NCBI GenBank assembly: GCA_902777205.1
Contig: CACYSU010000005.1
Span: 9,362 to 73,361, forward strand
Reading direction: 5' to 3'
DNA from: an uncultured Rhodospirillales bacterium
GTDB taxonomy: Bacteria > Pseudomonadota > Alphaproteobacteria > CAAGCB01 > CAG-977
Length of the DNA stretch: 64,000 bases
Notes under the pieces: model-generated
Database searches by the model: none
What the model was told of the DNA's origin: nothing
What the model saw: the letters and a program-made list of their open reading frames with translations, nothing else
Made by a program: the position numbers and the translations under genes
In this document: in pieces, positions 1 to 17,368 of the stretch
Layout: every line of letters starts with the position of its first letter
How positions within the stretch are numbered: the first letter of the stretch is position 1

Positions 1-439
1 CCGCCCGACCGTCAAACAGCGAAAAGCTTTCGGAAGGTTTGAAATCGTGAAAATGCAGAACCGAAGGGATCATGTGCATTGGTAAAGGGAAAAACGGTTC
101 CGACATCAACACGCCAAAGACTTCCTCGGCCGTTTGGCCGTTCGGCAGTCGGGCGGCATGAATATTCAGGTTTGCTGTTTCCTGAAAAGCCGGATAAAAA
201 AAAGGAAATCCGCAAATGTGATCCCAGTGCGTGTGCGAAACCAGCATGGTGACGCGGTTGATCGACCGCTTGGCCAGACTGATCCCCAGCGCGCGAATTC
301 CGGATCCGGCGTCAATGACGACCGTTTCCCCGTCCAAATCGACTTCGACGCAGGAAGTGTTGCCGCCGTACACGGTGTGTTCCGCAGAACAGCACGGTAT
401 GCTGCCGCGCACTCCCCAGAAAGTAATTTTAACAGGCAT
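1..439 (-). CDS. MBL-fold metallo-hydrolase; C-terminus runs off the window edge
   Basis: My own minus-strand translation from the ATG at 439 gives MPVKITFWGVRGSIPCCSAEHTVYGGNTSCVEVDLDGETVVIDAGSGIRALG...VSHTHWDHICGFPFF, the HxHxDH metallo-beta-lactamase motif. The frame stays open across the A8 tract at 196-203 and has no stop before position 1. The ORF track does not list it because it has no in-window stop. Confidence 0.75.
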   Translation of the reverse strand, partial: MPVKITFWGVRGSIPCCSAEHTVYGGNTSCVEVDLDGETVVIDAGSGIRALGISLAKRSINRVTMLVSHTHWDHICGFPFFYPAFQETANLNIHAARLPNGQTAEEVFGVLMSEPFFPLPMHMIPSVLHFHDFKPSESFSLFDGRA

Positions 440-8544: not shown

Positions 8545-9396
8545 ATGTTTCCCTTGATCGGCATTTTGGTTGTCGTCGCCAGCGTCGCGGGCGGTTACGC
8601 GTGGGGCGGCGGGCATTTCGGCGTGTTGTGGCAGCCGGGCGAGTTTTTGATCATCGGCGGCGCGGCGTTCGGCGCGTTTTTGATATCCAACCCGCCGTCG
8701 GTCGTTTTCGCGACGTTCAAAACGCTGCCCCGCATATTCGCCAAACCGCGCTATGACAAAAAAAGCTTTTCCGAAGCGCTGGCGATGCTTTACGCCTTTT
8801 TCCGGCTGGCGCGGGCGAAAGGCAACATGATGTTGGAACAGCATATCGAAAAACCGGAAAACAGCGACATTTTCAAACAGTTCCCCCTGATCACAAAGGA
8901 CGCGGAGGCCATGGATTTCATGACCGGCTATATGCGGCTGCTGACGTTCGGGACGCTGGCGCCGCACGAGGTCGAATCCGTCATCGACGCGGAAATGGAG
9001 GGGATACAGCATGAAAAGGAATCGCTGGCCGCCGGTTTGAACCGTGTCGCCGACGCTTTGCCCGGATTGGGCATCGTCGCCGCGGTTTTGGGCGTCATCC
9101 ACACGATGGGCGCGCTGAACGAACCGCCCGAAGTGTTGGGCAACCTGATCGGCGCGGCGCTGGTCGGAACGTTTTTCGGCGTGCTGATGGCCTACGGCTT
9201 TGTCGCGCCGCTGTCCGCGGCCGTCGCCAACGTGTCCAACCCCGAACTGGAATACCTGAATTTGATTAAGGCCGCTTTGATGGGGCATATTCAGGGCTAC
9301 GCGCCGCAGGTGTCGGTCGAATTCGCGCGCAAATCCCTGCCGCCGGAGGTGCGCCCGACCTTCGCCGAAATTGATGCGATTTGTGAAAAGCTCTGA
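8545..9396 (+). CDS. motA: Flagellar-type motor stator protein MotA (MotA/TolQ/ExbB channel family)
   Basis: 283 aa. GGHFGVLWQPGEFLIIGGAAFGAFLISN is near-colinear with E. coli MotA (GGSLGALYQPAELVIIAGAGIGSFIVGN). It has four TM helices and a cytoplasmic loop. The RBS is AGGAG. Confidence 0.85.
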   Translation: MFPLIGILVVVASVAGGYAWGGGHFGVLWQPGEFLIIGGAAFGAFLISNPPSVVFATFKTLPRIFAKPRYDKKSFSEALAMLYAFFRLARAKGNMMLEQHIEKPENSDIFKQFPLITKDAEAMDFMTGYMRLLTFGTLAPHEVESVIDAEMEGIQHEKESLAAGLNRVADALPGLGIVAAVLGVIHTMGALNEPPEVLGNLIGAALVGTFFGVLMAYGFVAPLSAAVANVSNPELEYLNLIKAALMGHIQGYAPQVSVEFARKSLPPEVRPTFAEIDAICEKL

Positions 9397-9407
9397 CGCG
9401 GGAGGGT

Positions 9408-10265
9408 ATGGTTATGGCTGAAAACGGGGAACGGCCGATCGTCGTCAAACGCGTGAAAAAAGGCGGGCACGACGCCCACGGCGGATCGTGGAAAGTCGCC
9501 TACGCCGATTTTATGACGGCGATGATGGCGTTTTTCCTGTTGATGTGGATTTTGCAGACGACATCCAAGGAGCAGAAAGAGGGCATCGCGCAGTATTTCA
9601 CGACGGGGTCGGTGATGAATTCGTCCACGTCGGGCGGCGACACGATTTTGACGGGCGGTCAGGAATCTTTGGAAACCGCCGCCGCGCCGCAAGCCTTGCC
9701 CTTTGTCGGTTTCGACGGGTCGAACGAATTTCCCGTCCTTTCCCCGCAGCGGGAACGGCTGGTCGAAAAGGAAAAAGAGCTGTTCGGCCGCGCCCGCATC
9801 GCGTTGGAGGAAGCCATGCGTTCCGACGCCGATTTGATGGAACTGCACGACAGTCTGGTCGTTTCCGAAACCAAAGAGGGATTGCGGATTCAGCTGATCG
9901 ACCAGCTGAACCGCCCCCTGTTCGTCAGCGGATCGGACGAACTGACCCCGAACGGGGCGCGTCTGACGGGGTTGCTGGCGCGCGTGTTGAAACAGATGCC
10001 TCATTCCCTGTCGATCGAGGGGCACACCGACGCCGTCCCCTTCGCCGGCAAGAACGGGTATTCCAACTGGGAACTGTCGTCCCAGCGGGCTTTGGCGTTC
10101 CGGCGTCGGCTGATCAAACTGGGCGTCGCGGAGGAAAAGATCGTCCGCGTCGTCGGCAAGGCATCCACCGAACCGTATTTGAAAAACGATCCGCAGGCGC
10201 CGCAGAACCGCCGGATCAGCGTTTTGCTGCCGTCGTTGGTGACGGATGAAAAGGACGACGATTAG
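9408..10265 (+). CDS. motB: Motor stator protein MotB (OmpA-like peptidoglycan-binding domain)
   Basis: GGHDAHGGSWKVAYADFMTAMMAFFLLMW is the canonical MotB plug/TM region and includes the conserved Asp. The C-terminal OmpA-like domain contains NRRISV. The RBS is GGAGGG, and the gene lies 12 nt after motA. Confidence 0.82.
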   Translation: MVMAENGERPIVVKRVKKGGHDAHGGSWKVAYADFMTAMMAFFLLMWILQTTSKEQKEGIAQYFTTGSVMNSSTSGGDTILTGGQESLETAAAPQALPFVGFDGSNEFPVLSPQRERLVEKEKELFGRARIALEEAMRSDADLMELHDSLVVSETKEGLRIQLIDQLNRPLFVSGSDELTPNGARLTGLLARVLKQMPHSLSIEGHTDAVPFAGKNGYSNWELSSQRALAFRRRLIKLGVAEEKIVRVVGKASTEPYLKNDPQAPQNRRISVLLPSLVTDEKDDD

Positions 10266-11374
10266 GGATTTTTATCCGGAACGATGTCAATGACGACGTA
10301 TTCGGATTTGGTGCCCGTTTTAAATTTGATCGCCCAATCGGACAGTCCCGACGTGACGATGAAATCCGTGTTTTCGCGACGCTCGAACCCATAAGTTTTG
10401 TCGTTCGCGCCGATCCATACGCCGACATCGTTCAGCGGGAAAATCTGCCCGCCGTGGGTGTGTCCCGACAGCACCAGATCGACGCCGGATTCCGCCTGCT
10501 TTTTATAATCGTTCGGCTGGTGATCCAAAACGGCGGCGTATTTCGACCGATCCAAACCTTTGACCAAACCGGCCATTTCCGCCCGTACGCCGCCGCGGTA
10601 TTTTTCGCCAGCGTCCTGCCGCCCGATCAAAACGATGTCGTCGCGGATCGGGGCGGTTTCATCCTGCAAAACGGTCACGCCGTTCTTTTCCAATTCGGCG
10701 ATCAGGTCGTCGCCCGTGAAACCGCGGCGTTTCGGATCGTAATACCCTTTGTCGTGATTGCCGAAAACAAAGAAAACGCCGTGCTTCGTTTTCATTTCGC
10801 CCAACGCTTCGGCGGCCGCGACCATATCGGCGCGGGAGGTGCCGTCGTCAACGAAATCGCCGACAATGACGACGACATCCGGATTTTCGGTCTGCATGGT
10901 TCGGATGTGTTTGGCGAATCCTTTGCCGTCAAACGTCGTGCCGATGTGCGAATCGGCGAATTGGACGATGCGGATCGGGGCGGAAACTTTCGGCGACGCA
11001 ATCGTGTAGCGCGTCGCCCACACGCCGTGGTCAAGCGCCCAGCCCGCCGTCAAAACGGCAACGCTGAAAACGACGGCAACCCAACCGGCGTAATAACGCT
11101 TTTGCGGTTTTTTGAAAAACAGGGCGGCAAAGTCGCAGATCAGCCAGACGCCCGTGAAATGGATCAGGCAGACGATCGCGTTCATCGTGTTCAACACGGC
11201 GCACAAAACGCCGAACAGGGCGGCGACGGCCATAAAATCGAATGTGTAGGCCAAAATCCGCTTGTCCGTGAATTTGCGCGACATGCCGAATTTGTACAGA
11301 CGGGACGCCAGATATAAAACGCCGAAGGCGGTTGCAATCATTGTAACGGTAAAGATGACCAGCCACATTTTCAT
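10262..11374 (-). CDS. Membrane-anchored calcineurin-like metallophosphoesterase
   Basis: N-terminal TM helices are followed by the metallophosphatase motifs QFADSHIG, GDFVDDG, GNHD and GHTHGG. Its start overlaps the stop of the upstream polyferredoxin gene as ATGA (11371-11374). Confidence 0.8.
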   Translation of the reverse strand: MKMWLVIFTVTMIATAFGVLYLASRLYKFGMSRKFTDKRILAYTFDFMAVAALFGVLCAVLNTMNAIVCLIHFTGVWLICDFAALFFKKPQKRYYAGWVAVVFSVAVLTAGWALDHGVWATRYTIASPKVSAPIRIVQFADSHIGTTFDGKGFAKHIRTMQTENPDVVVIVGDFVDDGTSRADMVAAAEALGEMKTKHGVFFVFGNHDKGYYDPKRRGFTGDDLIAELEKNGVTVLQDETAPIRDDIVLIGRQDAGEKYRGGVRAEMAGLVKGLDRSKYAAVLDHQPNDYKKQAESGVDLVLSGHTHGGQIFPLNDVGVWIGANDKTYGFERRENTDFIVTSGLSDWAIKFKTGTKSEYVVIDIVPDKNP

Positions 11375-12642
11375 TTTTGCAAAATCCTTTGTTCAAAAAC
11401 GGGTTCGACGAAAATCGCCTGAACGGGGCAGGCGTTTTGACACGCGCCGCATCCGACGCATTTGTCCGCGCTGATGCGGGGCGGTTCGCCGTCCGCGCGT
11501 TCGATGATTTGGCGCGGGCATTTCATGACGCACAGGCCGCACCGGACGCACGCGTCTTCGTCCACGCGCGCCACGCCGATCTGCGTTCTTTGCTTGACGG
11601 GCAGGGGCAGGCGTTCAATCGCGCCGGACGGGCAGACATCGCCGCATTCGTGACAGTCGAAAGCGCAGAAATTGTTTGAAATGTCCAGATGAACGGCGGG
11701 AAAGTTCCCGTCCGCCTTTTTCAAAATCTTCATCGGGCAGTTTTGAACGCACAGATTGCAGTTCAAACACCGGTTCGCCAGCCTTTGCGCGTTTTTCGCC
11801 CCCGCGGGCAGCAGGACGTTTTTGACTTTGGCGAACGCCTTTTTGCCCAACGCCGCGCCGCCGCCGATCATGGCCGCGAACAACGCCGCCGCCGCGCCCG
11901 CCCGCAGCATTTCGCGGCGATCCGGATCGGTCGGGGCGTCGCTCTTTGCCGCCTTGCCGTAGCGCAGGGCTTTCCTGCGGCAGGTGTTCAGGCATTTGAA
12001 ACATTTGACGCACGTTTCGTTGTCAACGGTTTTTGATTTGAAATCAATGCATCCCGCGGGGCATTTCATCGCGCACAATCCGCACGACACGCATTTGTCC
12101 GCGTCAACGGCGATTTTGCTGCGGGCGTGTTTGGAAATCAGCCCCAGCACCGCGCCGACGGGACACAGGTTCGTGCAGAACCGCCGCCCCTTGAACCAGA
12201 CCAGAACGGCCAAAACCGCCAGAAAGACCAGACCGAACGCCGCGCCCGACACCGCCGACACGAACATCGTGTAGGGTTCGATTTGCCGTAAAACCAGCGC
12301 GGAACCGCCGATCGTCGCGCCGAACGCCGCCGCGGCGATGAAATATTTGTACGCGCGGTTCTTTTGCGGTTTTTGTTTGCGGCGGAAAACGATCGTCAGC
12401 AGTTCCTGAAACAATCCCAGCGGGCAGACGGTCGAACAATACACCCGCCCGAACACGGCGGTGACGATTAAAACACCCGCCAGAACCACCGCCGCGCCCC
12501 ACGAAAACGCGGTCAGGTTCCTTTGGAACACGGCGGAAAACTGAACGTCGAACACTTTGACGGGATAAAACGCCCCCGTCATGCCGCCGACCAGCAGAAC
12601 GGCGATCAAAGCGGCGCAAATCAAACGGATTTTATACAGCAT
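11371..12642 (-). CDS. Membrane-bound polyferredoxin of the NapH/MauN/CcoG family (multiple 4Fe-4S clusters)
   Basis: Two CxxxCP motifs sit in the TM region (CSTVCPLG, CTNLCPVG). Six CxxCxxCxxxC(P) ferredoxin motifs follow: CVSCGLCAMKCP, CVKCFKCLNTC, CLNCNLCVQNCP, CHECGDVCP, CVRCGLCVMKCP and CVGCGACQNACP. I prefer the start at 12642 (MLYKIRL...) because AAGGA sits 8 nt upstream. The ORF track extends to 12684. Confidence 0.75.
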   Translation of the reverse strand: MLYKIRLICAALIAVLLVGGMTGAFYPVKVFDVQFSAVFQRNLTAFSWGAAVVLAGVLIVTAVFGRVYCSTVCPLGLFQELLTIVFRRKQKPQKNRAYKYFIAAAAFGATIGGSALVLRQIEPYTMFVSAVSGAAFGLVFLAVLAVLVWFKGRRFCTNLCPVGAVLGLISKHARSKIAVDADKCVSCGLCAMKCPAGCIDFKSKTVDNETCVKCFKCLNTCRRKALRYGKAAKSDAPTDPDRREMLRAGAAAALFAAMIGGGAALGKKAFAKVKNVLLPAGAKNAQRLANRCLNCNLCVQNCPMKILKKADGNFPAVHLDISNNFCAFDCHECGDVCPSGAIERLPLPVKQRTQIGVARVDEDACVRCGLCVMKCPRQIIERADGEPPRISADKCVGCGACQNACPVQAIFVEPVFEQRILQK

Positions 12643-12653
12643 GGCTTTAATCC

Positions 12654-13310
12654 TTACAAACCGCACAAAATCGCCGCGCCGCACGCCATGATCGTGCCGC
12701 CCGCGATTTCATGGGCGTATTGTTCCAAACGTTTGAAACGCATCGCGCTGATGCCCAGAACGCCGAACGCGACGGCGATCATCATCGTGGCGATGGTCGC
12801 GACGGAAAAGATGAGCGTCGAGGAAACGACGGCGGAAATGCCCATGACGCTGGCCGCGGTCAGGATCGGCAGCAACGCTTCGCACGGGCCCAGAACGAAA
12901 ATGATGAACAGCACCCAGACGGAAACGCTTTTGCCGTCGGCGGGGGTGATGAAATGCGTGTGTTCCGCGCCGTGTTTGTGCTGCCAGCGGTGTTTCAGCG
13001 CCCACAGCAGGTACGCCGCGCCCAGCCCGATCAGGGCGTAGGCCGCGATGTCGCCGCGGTTGTCTTCGATCCACATGAAATTTTCTTCGCTCAGCCAGCG
13101 GGAAAAGTAAATGAACGCCAGCGCGATCATCAGCGCGCTGACAATATGCCCGATGCCGCACACGAACGTCAGCGCCAGCGTTTTTTTCAGGCTGTATCCG
13201 CGGATCTTGCCAATGGCGACAAAGGGCAGGTAATGGTCGGGACCCGTTATCGTGTGAACGACCGCCGTTAAAAACGCCGTCGCCCACAAAGCCGTCAAAG
13301 TTGCCGTCAT
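12654..13310 (-). CDS. Putative Ni/Co transporter-like membrane protein (NicO/RcnA/UreH-like, with a His-rich loop)
   Basis: 218 aa with about 6 TM helices. It has a GPDHY motif near TM1 and a central His-rich loop (KHRWQHKHGAEHTHF), typical of Ni/Co permease or efflux families. I inferred the family from motifs only. Confidence 0.45.
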   Translation of the reverse strand: MTATLTALWATAFLTAVVHTITGPDHYLPFVAIGKIRGYSLKKTLALTFVCGIGHIVSALMIALAFIYFSRWLSEENFMWIEDNRGDIAAYALIGLGAAYLLWALKHRWQHKHGAEHTHFITPADGKSVSVWVLFIIFVLGPCEALLPILTAASVMGISAVVSSTLIFSVATIATMMIAVAFGVLGISAMRFKRLEQYAHEIAGGTIMACGAAILCGL

Positions 13311-14119
13311 AATTCATTTCCTTTCAAATCAAAATCAAAGCATCCGGAACGGAATCCGTCCAGATCCAAAGTCGTAAAGTCGAATCCCAGCCGTTTCATT
13401 TCCGCGGCGATTTCCGCGGCGCGCGCGGCCAAGGCCGGAATCGCGGGGGCGGACACTTCAATCCGCGCCAGATTTTTATGAACGCGCAGACGCACGTTTT
13501 GAACGTCGGGGAACAGATGTTTTAAAAACGCCTCGCCCTTTTCCACCCGTTCGATCGCGTCTTCGGTCAAAACCGTGTCGTATTCAAACCGCGTCGCCAG
13601 ACACGGGGCGGCGGGTTTCGACGCGGTCGGCAGCCCCAGCCGCGCGGACAGGGCGCGAATGTCGGCCTTTGAAAATCCCGACAGCGGGGAAAGGATTCCG
13701 GATTCCCTCAACGCCTTGCGTCCGGGGCGGTAGGCGTGCGCGTCGTCGCCGTTCGTGCCGTCGATGACGTGTTTGAACCCGTGTTCCGCCGCGTATGCCA
13801 GAAATTGGCCGAAAACCGCCTTTTTGCAATGATAACAGCGATCGACGCGGTTGCGGCGCACTTCGTCGATCGACAGCGGGTTGAACGTGAAAACGCGATG
13901 TTCGACGCCGAACCGTTCGGCAAAATCGGCGGCTTCGGCGGATTCGGCGGGCGGCTGCAGCACCGTCCGCATTGTCAGCGCGACAAGGGGGAACGGCCGT
14001 TCGCGCCGCATATCCGCCAGCACCGCCAGCAAAAGCGAGCTGTCAACCCCGCCCGAAAACGCCAGCGCGATTCCGTCGGCGCAAAGTGGTTCCAGCCGTT
14101 GTTTCAACGCGTCAAGCAT
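13307..14119 (-). CDS. larE: ATP-dependent sacrificial sulfur transferase LarE (PP-loop ATP pyrophosphatase)
   Basis: Contains the PP-loop SGGVDSS and the conserved catalytic Cys in AAPCLATRF. It is 270 aa. Its start overlaps the larC stop by 8 nt. Confidence 0.85.
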   Translation of the reverse strand: MLDALKQRLEPLCADGIALAFSGGVDSSLLLAVLADMRRERPFPLVALTMRTVLQPPAESAEAADFAERFGVEHRVFTFNPLSIDEVRRNRVDRCYHCKKAVFGQFLAYAAEHGFKHVIDGTNGDDAHAYRPGRKALRESGILSPLSGFSKADIRALSARLGLPTASKPAAPCLATRFEYDTVLTEDAIERVEKGEAFLKHLFPDVQNVRLRVHKNLARIEVSAPAIPALAARAAEIAAEMKRLGFDFTTLDLDGFRSGCFDFDLKGNEL

Positions 14120-15350
14120 TGTCGTTTTCCTTTGCCGCGCGCCGCGCCGCGTCGAAAATTTCGCGAAACGGCAGGCCGCAGGATTCCGCCGCCCGTTTGA
14201 CGCTTTCGTATTCGGGATTGTAGCGCGCGATGTCGCCCAGCGTGCATTTTTTGACCTCTATTTCGCCGCAGGGCAGGGCGACGCGCACGATTTCGCGATC
14301 CATGCACCGCCGTTCCACCGCGTATTTGCGCAGCCCGATCGTGGTCGTATTGCGGAAAATGATATCCTCCATCACGGGCAGGCGTTTCGAGGCCGCGACG
14401 ACGCGCAGCATATACGCGGGACGGTTCTTTTTCATAAAGCACGGTTCGAAATGCACGTCCGCCGCGCCCGCCGCGAACAGCTTTTCCATCGCCAATCCCA
14501 GCTCTTCGGCCGTCGAATCGTCAATGTTCGTTTCAATGACGTACATCTGATCCGCGTCCGTTTCGTCGTCGATCAGCATCGCCCGCAAAAAATTCGCGCG
14601 GTGAAAGTCGCGCTTGCCCAATCCGACGCCGGATTTTTTGATCTTGAACGACGCCGGCAGCTTTTCCGCCGTGCGGACGGCCGCGGCGATCGCGATGCCC
14701 GTCGGCGTCACCATTTCCCCGTCAACGTCCGTCGGGCGCAGAGGGACGCCGCGCGATTCGGCGATGTTCAAAACGGCGGGGACGGGCACGGGCAGGACGC
14801 CGTGCTGACAGGTGACGAAACCGCGTCCCTCGTTCAATCCGTCAACGATGACGTTTTTGACGCCCAGATCGTCGATCAAAACGGCGGCGGCGATGATGTC
14901 AACGATGGAATCGACCGCGCCGACTTCGTGAAAATGGACTTCCTCCACCGCGCAGCCGTGGGCTTTGGCTTCGGCCTCGGCGACGATTTGAAAGATTTTT
15001 TTCGCCAGATCGCGCGCCGCGGCGGTGATGTCCGCATGGTCGATGATGTGGAAAACGTCGGCCAAATGGCGGTGTTCGTGAGGGTGATGATCGTGGCTAT
15101 GGTCGTGATCGTGGTCGTGGTCATGGTCATGATCGTGGTGATGTTCCGCGCGCGTCAGCCGCACGTCGAAATCCAGCCCCGAAACGCCGTAGGACGATTT
15201 GCGTTCGACCGCCCAGTCGAATTCCCCCGCGGGCAGGCTGGCCAAAGCGGTTTTCAGCTTTTCGACGCTCGCCCCCAGATCCAGCAAAGCCGCGACGGTC
15301 ATGTCGCCGCTGATGCCGCTTTTGCCTTCCAGATACAGATATTCGGTCAT
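14112..15350 (-). CDS. larC: Nickel-pincer cofactor nickel insertase LarC (DUF111)
   Basis: YLYLEGKSGISGDM N-terminus, the HEVGAVDSIVDIIAA and TTTIGLRKY motifs, and a His-rich stretch (HHHDHDHDHDHDHSHDHHPHEH). I prefer the ATG at 15350, which overlaps the larB stop as ATGA. The ORF track starts at 15377. Confidence 0.85.
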   Translation of the reverse strand: MTEYLYLEGKSGISGDMTVAALLDLGASVEKLKTALASLPAGEFDWAVERKSSYGVSGLDFDVRLTRAEHHHDHDHDHDHDHDHSHDHHPHEHRHLADVFHIIDHADITAAARDLAKKIFQIVAEAEAKAHGCAVEEVHFHEVGAVDSIVDIIAAAVLIDDLGVKNVIVDGLNEGRGFVTCQHGVLPVPVPAVLNIAESRGVPLRPTDVDGEMVTPTGIAIAAAVRTAEKLPASFKIKKSGVGLGKRDFHRANFLRAMLIDDETDADQMYVIETNIDDSTAEELGLAMEKLFAAGAADVHFEPCFMKKNRPAYMLRVVAASKRLPVMEDIIFRNTTTIGLRKYAVERRCMDREIVRVALPCGEIEVKKCTLGDIARYNPEYESVKRAAESCGLPFREIFDAARRAAKENDNA

Positions 15351-16024
15351 TTGTGAATCCTTTGCAAAATTTTGCACGCCTGCACCGCCGCGCCGAAACC
15401 GTTGTCGATGTTGACGACGGAAATCCCTTCGGCGCAGGAATTCAGCATGGTCAATAACGCCGCCAGCCCGTGAAACGACGCGCCGTAACCGACCGATGTC
15501 GGCACCGCGATGACGGGCGCGTCCACCAATCCGGCGACGACGCTTGCCAGCGCGCCTTCCATGCCGGCGACGGCGATGACGACGTCGGCTTGGCGGATCG
15601 CGTCGATTTTCGACAGCAAACGGTGGATGCCCGCGACGCCGACATCAAAGTGCCGGTCAACCGCCGCTCCGAAAAACGCGGCGCAGACGGCGGCTTCCTC
15701 GGCGACGGGCAGGTCGGCCGTTCCGCCCGTGCACACGGCGATCCGGCCGTTCAGGCGTTTTTGTTCGCCGGCGTTCAGCGCGATCGTGCGGGAAGCGGCG
15801 TCGTATCGCGCCGCCACCCCCGCCGATTGAACGAAAGCCGCCTGTTCGGGCGAACAGCGCGTTCCCAGAACCCGACAGCCCTTGTTTGCAAAGGCCGCCA
15901 GTATTTTCGCCAGCTGTTCGTTCGTTTTGCCCGCGCAATAAACGGTTTCGGGCAATCCCGTGCGGTCGGCGCGGGTCGTGTCCAGCTTGGCGAATCCCAA
16001 ATCTTCAAACGCGTTGTCCGTCAT
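15347..16024 (-). CDS. larB: Pyridinium-3,5-biscarboxylic acid mononucleotide synthase LarB (PurE-like)
   Basis: GGTADLPVAEEA, VIAVAGMEGALASVV, VIAVPTSVGYG and VVNIDNGFGAA are the LarB/PurE-like signature blocks. It is 225 aa. Confidence 0.85.
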   Translation of the reverse strand: MTDNAFEDLGFAKLDTTRADRTGLPETVYCAGKTNEQLAKILAAFANKGCRVLGTRCSPEQAAFVQSAGVAARYDAASRTIALNAGEQKRLNGRIAVCTGGTADLPVAEEAAVCAAFFGAAVDRHFDVGVAGIHRLLSKIDAIRQADVVIAVAGMEGALASVVAGLVDAPVIAVPTSVGYGASFHGLAALLTMLNSCAEGISVVNIDNGFGAAVQACKILQRIHK

Positions 16025-16028
16025 GGTT

Positions 16029-17267
16029 TCACCCCTCGAACGTTTTGGCGACTTCTTTCATCCATTGACTGATTTCGATGTGCTGCGGACAATGCTTTTC
16101 GCACATTCTGCACCCGATGCAGGACGACGCCTTGCCGTGTTCCTTGATCAGGTTGGCGTAATACATGCGCTGGGCATTGAACGGTTTGTCCGAACGTTCC
16201 TGCTTTTCCGCGTTGTACAGCGCGAAATAGTCGGGGATCGCGATTTTCATCGGACAGAATTCGACGCAGTACCGGCACGCCGTGCAGGGGATCGCGATTT
16301 CGTCGTGCAAGGTCTTGATCGCTTTTTCGATCGTGCGCGTTTCCGCGTCGTCCAGCGGTTTGAAATTTTGCATATAGGACGTGTTGTCCAACAGCTGTTC
16401 CATATTGCTCATGCCGCTTAAAACCATCATGACGCCGGGCAGGGACGCGACATAGCGGATCGCCCACGACGCGACGGACATATCGGGTTCGGCGTCCTTG
16501 AAAATCTTTTCAACCGACGGGGGTACCATGGCCAGCGAACCGCCCTTGACGGGTTCCATGACGACGACGGGTTTGTTGTATTTCTGCGCGATTTCATAGC
16601 ATTTGCGCGATTGGATGCTGGGGTTGTCCCAGTCGATGTAGTTGATTTGCAGCTGGACGAAATCGACTTCGGGGTGGGCTTTCAACACCTGTTCCAACAA
16701 ATCGGCCTTGTCATGGAACGAAAAACCGATGTTTTTGATTTTGCCTTCTTTTTTCTTCTGCGCGATGAAACCGAAGCAGTCGTATTTGTCAACGTTGGGC
16801 AAAGTCGTCGCGTTGACGTTGTGAACCAGATAGTAATCGAAATAATCCAGTCCCGTTTTTTCCAGCTGTTTGTTGAAAATGGTTTCGCGATCCTCCGCGC
16901 TTTTCAAATAACCGGCGGGCAGCTTGCTGGCGACGGTGAACGTGTTGCGCGGGTGGCGTTTGACCAGCGATTCGCGGATGGCGATTTCGCTTTCATATCC
17001 CATGTACATCCATGCGGTGTCGAAATAGGTGAATCCGCGTTCCATGAACGTGTCCACCATTTTGTTCAGCGTTTCATAGTCGATGGCCGTCTGGTCGTCG
17101 GGGTTTTTCAGCGGCAGGCGCATAAACCCGAACCCCAGTTTGTTTTTGGGGTTGACCTTGTCTTTGACCGATTGCGAAACAGGGATCGTTTCCGCCAGCG
17201 TCAGTTTGGGCAAAGCCGTCAGGGCGAACGTGGCCAGCGTGCTCATCAAAAATTGTCTTCTGTTCAT
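16029..17267 (-). CDS. Tat-exported aldo/keto reductase fused to a C-terminal 4Fe-4S ferredoxin domain
   Basis: The real start is at 17267 ([27 protein letters not shown], a twin-arginine signal) with GGAGG 8 nt upstream. The ORF-track extension to 18305 is an open high-GC frame. The protein has an AKR TIM-barrel ([11 protein letters not shown] ... VMEP) and a C-terminal Cys-rich region ([12 protein letters not shown] ... [12 protein letters not shown]). Confidence 0.75.
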
Positions 17268-17349
17268 ATCGAAACCTCCAAGAATGATATGAAACAGGAT
17301 AGGTTTTAAAGCGAACTTTAAGTCAAGTGTTTTTTTGCAAAAAGGAAAA

Positions 17350-17368
17350 GGGGGCGCGCCCCCTTTTT
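17350..17368. terminator. Rho-independent terminator after rlmI, insulating the upstream edge of the lar operon
   Basis: GGGGGCGCGCCCCC palindromic stem followed by TTTTT, 16 nt downstream of the rlmI stop. Confidence 0.55.

Follow-up and report, generated by a model that had tools for sequence, protein, structure and literature searches.

What do a small six-helix membrane protein and a membrane polyferredoxin do directly behind larE in a nickel-pincer cofactor locus? The question is raised by contig CACYSU010000005.1 of an uncultured Rhodospirillales bacterium, of which a stretch of 64,000 nt (the window) was analyzed. Seven minus-strand genes lie head to tail from 17267 to 10262 and encode, in this order, an aldo/keto reductase (AKR) with Fe-S motifs (AKR-FeS), LarB, LarC, LarE, the 218-amino acid (aa) membrane protein (here called X), the polyferredoxin (PFD) and a membrane metallophosphoesterase (MPE). 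Judged by gene arrangement, the seven genes form a single operon (Table 1). We consider it probable, though well short of certain, that this operon joins two modules: larBCE-X, in which X is the predicted nickel permease, and a predicted exported redox pair made up of AKR-FeS and PFD. An original prediction for this DNA had drawn metal import and redox chemistry together as one module attached to cofactor synthesis; it did not mention AKR-FeS, the gene at the operon head.

X was found where it had been predicted, after larE, with a GPDHY motif (HTITGPDHYLPF in the first helix) and a His-rich loop (LKHRWQHKHGAEHTHF); an in-frame stop two codons 5' of its ATG makes a longer N-terminus impossible. 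Its close homologues in databases are all named "hypothetical proteins" and come from uncultured Alphaproteobacteria and relatives. A profile built from 13 of them recovered 1,511 clusters (50% identity) at E<=1e-3 and 826 at E<=1e-10, and with about 1,500 homologous clusters the open reading frame (ORF) is not a chance one. The family signature consists of HTxxGPDHYLPF in helix 1, CGxGH in helix 2 and FxxGPCEPLI in helix 4, while the loop between helices 3 and 4 is variable and holds 3 to 25 histidines. Among 60 diverse members, H19, H26, P29, H55, G97, P142, C143 and T172 are invariant and D25 and E144 nearly so; C143 is the sole invariant Cys, and helix 1 of X has none.

The hidden Markov models with which X was to be classified, NicO (PF03824), HupE/UreJ (PF04955) and DsbD_2 (PF13386), do not match X itself. 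The proposed nickel transporter for LarC is upheld by another route, namely through relatives, an alignment to RcnA and gene context. PF13386 matches 32 of the 60 diverse relatives (best 3.4e-9), and the relatives that carry it match the X-clade profile at E down to 1e-80; PF04955 is touched by a single one of the 60 (E = 0.011). When the 60-sequence profile was searched, 5,141 proteins were returned, and among the top 120 nearly all carry PF13386, two of them with PF03824 in addition. Source names among the matches include "nickel/cobalt transporter (NicO) family", "nickel/cobalt exporter", "RcnA" and "sulfite exporter TauE/SafE". Profile alignment by hhalign to Escherichia coli RcnA gave 91.6% probability and E = 8e-7 over helices 1-2, where HTxxGPDH of X pairs with HGLEPGH and CGxGH with ISH; in helix 4, GPCEA of X pairs with IPCPAA (73.5% probability). 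These profile relationships place X in the DsbD_2/NicO (LysE-type) group, as a divergent member. In its AlphaFold2 model (predicted local distance difference test 77, predicted template modeling score 0.71) helices 1 and 4 are broken exactly at GPDH and GPCE, a pattern that would be expected if a 3+3 repeat held a binding site at mid-membrane. By the positive-inside rule, the cytoplasmic loops are 1, 3 and 5, with the His-rich loop KHRWQHKHGAEHTH (residues 105-120) among them, and the N-terminus is outside. The outside N-terminus agrees with the cleavable signal peptides of many homologues, and some homologues have His-rich mature N-termini that face outward.

The neighborhoods of X point to nickel. 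The close clade gave 12 readable loci, which represent seven or more lineages and include three Akkermansia metagenome-assembled genomes (MAGs). In all 12, X lies directly 3' of larE, and the enzyme encoded near larBCE-X varies: AKR-FeS, a DUF362 protein, or none identified (see the gene orders in Table 1, where loci of relatives carry L numbers). X is also found within the lar cluster of a Puniceicoccaceae MAG (L043) and, beside a LarA-like gene, in that of a Porticoccaceae MAG (L061). X keeps its place after the cofactor genes no matter which candidate user of the cofactor is encoded nearby, and this ties its role to LarBCE. Remote members of the family, at about 40% identity, occur in at least 600 species of many phyla. 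They stand directly 3' of ureG-ureD on the same strand in three Bacteroidota loci and have NikR as immediate same-strand neighbor in an actinomycete MAG and an Omnitrophota MAG, and in one Syntrophaceae MAG a HypB/CobW-type GTPase gene precedes the X homologue. The family links to PF13386 and PF03824, the RcnA profile alignment and the adjacency to lar, urease-accessory, NikR and HypB-like genes suggest that X is most likely a nickel permease feeding LarC. Literature searches turned up no paper that links lar genes to a nickel transporter. A clade that public databases call "hypothetical" and curated models miss thus gains a likely function, the supply of nickel for nickel-pincer cofactor synthesis.

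PFD probably belongs to another context. The motif map contains both CxxxCP motifs and all six 4Fe-4S motifs that had been predicted. The N-terminal half matches Fer4_5 in two stretches (3e-18) and NapH models (1e-27, below the equivalog cut-offs), and NapG model NF007012 matches residues 250-379 of the 437-aa ORF (1.5e-14). From the earlier label "NapH/MauN/CcoG-type", NapH/MauN can be kept as the best NCBIfam model, with 97 bits against a cut-off of 213. CcoG (TIGR02745) is not among the best 25 of 89 NCBIfam matches to PFD, and the CcoG-type label is unsupported. It has been described that polytopic polyferredoxins are NapH-NapG fusions in which the Sec (general secretory) pathway inserts the first four helices and twin-arginine translocation (Tat) inserts the fifth and exports the cluster domain; the handover from Sec to Tat is marked by a twin-arginine motif before a weakly hydrophobic helix 5 and by positive charges after it (Tooke et al., 2017; PMC5449189). 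PFD has the same features: its helix 5 reaches a hydrophobicity peak of 1.63 (2.25-2.59 for helices 1, 2 and 4; 1.75 for helix 3) and is followed by the lysines of GKKAFAKVK, and in six homologues at 30-55% identity P240-x-R242-R243 and every cluster Cys are invariant. Judged by these features, PFD is a NapH-NapG fusion of the dual Sec/Tat-inserted type. The topology prediction puts two of its clusters inside and four outside the cell, in support of the conduit to the periplasm that had been suggested.

Which protein would PFD serve? A PFD-profile scan of metagenomes returned 80 loci, of which 39 could be evaluated: in these the PFD match is full-length and each flank measures 1.4 kb or more. 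In 30 of the 39, an AKR-FeS gene stands no more than 400 nt from PFD; in a PFD subfamily whose match begins only at about residue 53, the same neighbor was seen in 2 of 17 loci. The PFD-adjacent AKRs match the window AKR-FeS end to end at 31-37% identity, and nearly all have a twin-arginine signal of the form RRxFLK, in many cases with a lipobox Cys. They conserve GFS[FY]H, with S-x-H kept in 38 of 39 homologues. A TatC gene lies beside the PFD-AKR pair in nine metagenome loci, and tatA/tatC or tatC is also present in L002-L004 and L007. A lar gene within 8 kb was found at one of the 80 loci and X at none. Because PFD, across metagenomes, is found next to AKR-FeS, often together with TatC, but not with X or lar, it probably serves the exported AKR-FeS as redox partner in the membrane. 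If NapGH is taken as the model, PFD would connect this enzyme with the quinone pool. No paper was found on an AKR paired with Fe-S, Tat and a polyferredoxin. A polyferredoxin family formerly studied only for its Sec/Tat membrane insertion can now be assigned a likely conserved partner, a Tat-exported Fe-S aldo/keto reductase.

AKR-FeS has a strong ribosome-binding site (GGAGG), a twin-arginine signal peptide (MNRRQFL...TLA/ET) and a C-terminal domain with two [4Fe-4S] motifs. Its AlphaFold2 model matches AKR barrels; its GFSFH aligns to GVSNF of a canonical AKR, and the AKR-like Asp/Tyr/Lys/His set is kept in that alignment. The His two residues after the conserved Ser has the spacing of T142/H144 in the cofactor pocket of NphT, a match of position only. 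A study of 2026 (PMC13524815) reported aldo/keto reductases that depend on the nickel-pincer cofactor: AKRs encoded beside larBCE, where LarA is not found nearby, bind the mononucleotide form of the cofactor via a His/Lys motif, and 427 such co-occurrences were given. Fe-S domains, Tat signals, ferredoxins and transporters are not mentioned in that paper. In the gene tables, which cover most of the window, neither LarA (PF09861) nor DUF362 was found, and tblastn of the whole 64-kb window with a DUF362 protein gave no match. At least three gene orders bring AKR and larBCE together (the window, L002/L009 and L043). Since NAD(P)H is out of reach for an AKR in the periplasm, it would be reasonable for the enzyme to carry a hydride cofactor loaded beforehand. 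We infer that AKR-FeS is a likely user of both the cofactor and PFD.

The two modules could work as follows. LarB, LarC and LarE would make the nickel-pincer nucleotide cofactor, and X, as a six-helix secondary permease, would bring in Ni(II) for LarC. Its metal site would lie mid-membrane between the break of helix 1 (H19, D25, H26) and that of helix 4 (C143, E144), with H55 of helix 2 near, and the cytoplasmic His-rich loop could hand the ion on. In the second module AKR-FeS would receive its cofactors in the cytoplasm and be exported folded by Tat. PFD would be inserted by Sec (helices 1-4) and Tat (helix 5), which would leave its four-cluster NapG-like domain outside, where PFD could connect the quinone pool with the periplasmic AKR-FeS as NapGH does for nitrate reductase. 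As a tentative proposal, possible rather than probable, the operon might encode the first extracytoplasmic, Fe-S-wired nickel-pincer enzyme, an AKR-fold protein that is loaded in the cytoplasm with the LarBCE-made cofactor, its nickel coming from X, and with two [4Fe-4S] clusters, exported folded by Tat and coupled to quinone via PFD. If true, a hydride-transfer cofactor would join a respiratory-type chain that acts outside the cytoplasm on carbonyl or sugar substrates, by oxidation or reduction. As the PFD/AKR-FeS pair is widespread in metagenomes from the gut and the environment, the enzyme would then represent a kind of periplasmic oxidoreductase that is common yet undescribed. A nickel-pincer-dependent AKR-FeS would make this locus a prediction of a periplasmic, quinone-linked version that extends the known chemistry and location of the cofactor.

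Could X work in the opposite direction, as a nickel/cobalt exporter like RcnA that protects the cell or buffers nickel during LarC activity? The profile alignment to an exporter agrees with export, and so do the JGI names of family members, 'nickel/cobalt exporter' among them. However, X sits in clusters for nickel-enzyme biosynthesis or maturation (lar, ureDG, HypB-like GTPase) and directly after NikR, and a position inside urease, hydrogenase or lar loci is typical of importers. Neither an RcnR-type regulator nor a NiCo riboswitch is present, and some homologues expose His-rich N-termini to the outside. For these reasons import is favored, and an exporting X appears rather improbable to us. 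A protein with no metal substrate at all, either a CcdA/DsbD-like thiol-disulfide carrier or a TauE/SafE-type anion exporter that perhaps works with PFD, would account for the PF13386 matches in relatives, for the names 'cytochrome c biogenesis' and 'sulfite exporter TauE/SafE' (NCBI) and for the proximity of PFD in the window. Yet the two-cysteine relay is missing, the invariant residues include His, Asp and Cys next to a near-invariant Glu and a variable His-rich loop, and the two genes part company elsewhere: X follows larE without any PFD in L001, L010-L013 and L061, and PFD occurs without X in the 80 metagenome loci. We give such a non-metal function hardly any credence. The tight translational coupling of larE, X, PFD and MPE and the CXXC-C cluster motif of LarE would agree with X, PFD and MPE as one unit for cofactor synthesis, with PFD, for example, supplying electrons for nickel handling or for a [4Fe-4S] LarE. 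Against this, PFD is encoded upstream beside tat genes and an AKR in L002-L004 and L009, it is absent from L001, the Akkermansia loci and L061, and four of its six clusters are predicted outside, away from LarE and LarC. Clusters L002-L004, L007 and L008 have no MPE gene, and L009 shows only a weakly matching one (23% identity), some 9 kb downstream of X; because the gene is missing from relatives' clusters, MPE is treated as a lineage-specific passenger of the operon. The single module of the original prediction therefore comes apart, since X follows larE with or without PFD and PFD follows AKR-FeS with or without lar. A single unit for cofactor synthesis seems quite improbable.

The two-module reading also has to be weighed against a periplasmic redox system of AKR-FeS and PFD that uses no nickel-pincer cofactor, with lar and X serving an enzyme elsewhere and their position being incidental. 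In 40 metagenome loci no lar gene was seen up to 8 kb from the PFD-AKR pair, and AKR-FeS keeps the residue set of ordinary AKRs, its comparison with NphT being by position. Arguing for the cofactor are the clustering of AKR and larBCE in several gene orders, the binding of the cofactor by larBCE-adjacent AKRs (PMC13524815), the gene tables and tblastn search that turned up neither LarA nor DUF362 within the stated coverage, and the lack of NAD(P)H for a periplasmic AKR. We think a cofactor-free pair somewhat unlikely; because most PFD-AKR pairs have no lar genes nearby, AKR-FeS is regarded as a candidate user of the cofactor. Further observations count against our two-module reading. X gave no match to Pfam or NCBIfam models even at E<=10, and a fold search against solved structures returned no specific match. 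Most remote X members have uninformative housekeeping neighbors; RcnA, the sole characterized relative compared with X, is an exporter, and some pipelines call family members exporters. No tat genes are present in the 64-kb window. In AKR-FeS no tethering Lys is evident on comparison with NphT by position only, and the case for cofactor use stands on the operon arrangement of this clade together with a conserved S-x-H that was not aligned to NphT itself.

Upstream, a GC-rich perfect hairpin with a T run behind it terminates the preceding methyltransferase gene and sets the upstream limit of the operon; downstream, a convergent motB-like gene abuts the operon end. The larE gene upstream of X is confirmed, as are larB and larC, and so is the predicted ATGA overlap of PFD and MPE. 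The most likely start of PFD is ATG 12642, preferred because an AGGA stands 8 nt 5' and gene callers chose this ATG on identical contigs, and with this start PFD begins after the end of X and does not overlap it. GTG 12684 was considered as the PFD start and is less likely. The larC start is likewise the choice of gene callers. A promoter scan found no minus-strand sigma-70-like site, and all that stands 5' of AKR-FeS is a TTGACT hexamer whose -10 is poor. Neither a riboswitch nor any other RNA family came up in an Rfam scan of the window. The ribosome-binding site and start codon of AKR-FeS are flanked by a perfect inverted repeat of 8 nt (TTCATATC ... GATATGAA, 17263-17293), which could be a regulatory hairpin, an operator or a chance occurrence. 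Its half-sites stand in the opposite order to those of the E. coli NikR box, so it is perhaps chance.

Several side observations concern the individual genes and their relatives. LarC contains a long His/Asp repeat, HHHDHDHDHDHDHSHDHHPHEH, at about residues 80-100 of its 421-aa ORF, and this repeat gave a weak, spurious NCBIfam match to a nickel/cobalt efflux model. LarE carries SGGVDS plus CYHC...PC, the CXXC-C motif that marks the catalytic [4Fe-4S]-dependent type of LarE (PMC9283937); the window LarE has this motif although its NCBIfam name reads 'sacrificial sulfur transferase'. MPE has four N-terminal hydrophobic helices, and its charge distribution fits an N-terminus and a catalytic domain outside (predicted); its NCBIfam YaeI match is below the cut-off. 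Four-helix YkuE relatives have a twin-arginine motif before helix 4, and Sec plus Tat insertion has been proposed for them (PMC5449189). MPE has K-R (KKPQKRYY) at this place, not R-R. Three genes of the operon (AKR-FeS, PFD and MPE) resemble Tat-related families. The larB-larC-larE-X genes of Akkermansia MAGs and of another lineage are directly preceded by one or two DUF362 genes (L001:3442-5292; L010:5338-7188; L013:5894-6991). DUF362 and the N-terminal domain of LarA belong to the same Pfam clan (PMC11770544), and the DUF362 proteins beside larBCE-X may be further users of the cofactor. In the clusters of other relatives, flavodoxin-like or FMN-reductase genes lie between AKR and larB or between X and PFD (L002:4690-5265; L007:4887-5465, 8924-9541); the window operon has none. 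In Bacteroidota-type loci (L113, L135, L139, L141, L154 and others) the genes behind the PFD/AKR-FeS pair encode TM1506 (DUF1893), a TonB-dependent receptor and a 170-aa protein resembling the S component of an energy-coupling factor (ECF) transporter, and a hybrid two-component regulator is encoded nearby. The Bacteroidota-type neighbors hint at an inducible periplasmic substrate pathway.

Table 1. Genes, junctions, PFD elements and related gene orders at the larBCE-X locus (window positions; PFD elements in residues, 423-aa numbering).
Feature	Position	Strand	Description	Evidence
AKR-FeS	16029..17267	-	412-aa aldo/keto reductase, first operon gene	PF00248 3.5e-49; Fer4 models
AKR-FeS/larB junction			4-nt gap	
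larB	15347..16024	-	225 aa, carboxylase/hydrolase of nickel-pincer cofactor synthesis	NF033503 2.1e-86
larB/larC junction			ATGA overlap	
larC	14112..15350	-	412 aa from ATG 15350, nickel-inserting cyclometallase	PF01969 2.1e-133; TIGR00299, NF052512
larC/larE junction			8-nt overlap	
larE	13307..14119	-	270 aa, ATP-dependent sulfur transferase of nickel-pincer cofactor synthesis	TIGR00268 8.5e-76
larE/X junction			ATGA overlap (X ATG on larE stop)	
X	12654..13310	-	218 aa, six-helix membrane protein, predicted nickel permease	ORF, family profiles, RcnA alignment, gene context
X/PFD junction			11-nt gap	
PFD	11371..12642	-	423-aa polytopic polyferredoxin, NapH-like and NapG-like halves	Fer4_5, Fer4, NapH and NapG models
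PFD helices 1-4	7-25, 46-64, 100-118, 130-148			
PFD CxxxCP motifs	C69/C73, C156/C160		after helices 2 and 4	
PFD cluster motifs, NapH-like half	start C184, C211		two motifs	
PFD linker between halves			TDPDRREMLRAGAAAALFAAMIGGGAALGKKAFAK	
PFD twin-arginine	R242, R243		before fifth helix	
PFD helix 5	248-266			
PFD cluster motifs, NapG-like half	start C292, C326, C365, C395		four motifs	
PFD/MPE junction			ATGA overlap (MPE ATG on PFD stop)	
MPE	10262..11374	-	370-aa membrane metallophosphoesterase, YaeI/YkuE type, last operon gene	PF00149 2.7e-13; YaeI 4e-16
Hairpin	17346..17367	-	perfect 11+11 nt, GC-rich, then T run	
Gene order, window			AKR-FeS ... larBCE-X-PFD-MPE	
Gene order, L002-L004, L009			PFD-tatA-tatC-AKR-flavodoxin-larBCE-X	
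Gene order, L007			AKR-flavodoxin-larBCE-X-FMN reductase-PFD-tatC	
Gene order, L001, L010, L013			DUF362-larBCE-X	

How does this locus compare with known systems? PFD shares five helices, a twin-arginine motif before a weak helix 5 and a distribution of two clusters inside and four outside with the polytopic polyferredoxins of Tooke et al. (2017), for example Q1NSB0 of MLMS-1, a comparison made by described features only; the partner assigned to PFD by synteny, a Tat-exported AKR-FeS, is not discussed there (PMC5449189). AKR-FeS shares with NphT (PDB 9YEB) the AKR fold beside larB, larC and larE with no LarA nearby. NphT is a soluble protein of about 290 aa without an Fe-S domain, in which H144 binds nickel and K200 is the tethering residue (PMC13524815), whereas AKR-FeS has a Tat signal, a two-cluster ferredoxin domain and PFD as partner.

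Among membrane proteins, E. coli RcnA (NicO, PF03824) has in common with X six helices, the helix-1 motif H-x3-(G)P-[GD]-H, a helix-2 His, a loop rich in His that joins helices 3 and 4, and P-C as the helix-4 motif. X differs from RcnA in that it does not match PF03824 and has Asp in place of Gly in the helix-1 motif and Glu after the Cys; it is also shorter (218 aa against 274 aa) and has a shorter His loop. RcnA exports, while the context of X points to import. The UreH-type putative nickel permeases carry PF13386, as do relatives of X, some of which come last, behind ureG-ureD. For UreH and HupE/UreJ, the assignment to nickel was based on their adjacency to nickel-enzyme genes (PMC2667541). 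X shows adjacency of the same kind, with 12 of 12 close loci after larE and, among remote members, ureG-ureD (three), NikR (two) and a HypB-like GTPase (one). Unlike the UreH type, the lar-linked X clade has diverged below the detection of PF13386 by Pfam, and linkage to nickel-pincer cofactor genes did not turn up in the papers that were searched. HupE/UreJ proteins have six helices, in many cases a cleavable signal peptide, and HPxxGxDH in helix 1 where X has HTxxGPDH. Helix 4 of X contains GPCE and not the His-rich HupE motif, and the PF04955 model is unmatched by X. CcdA and DsbD have a conserved Cys in each of helices 1 and 4; of these two, X has only the one in helix 4 (C143). Finally, the lar locus of Lactiplantibacillus plantarum encodes its nickel transporter LarMQO, an ATP-driven ECF-type system, together with larBCE. 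X, as a predicted single-gene secondary permease, has a fold unrelated to that of LarMQO; both are encoded with larBCE.

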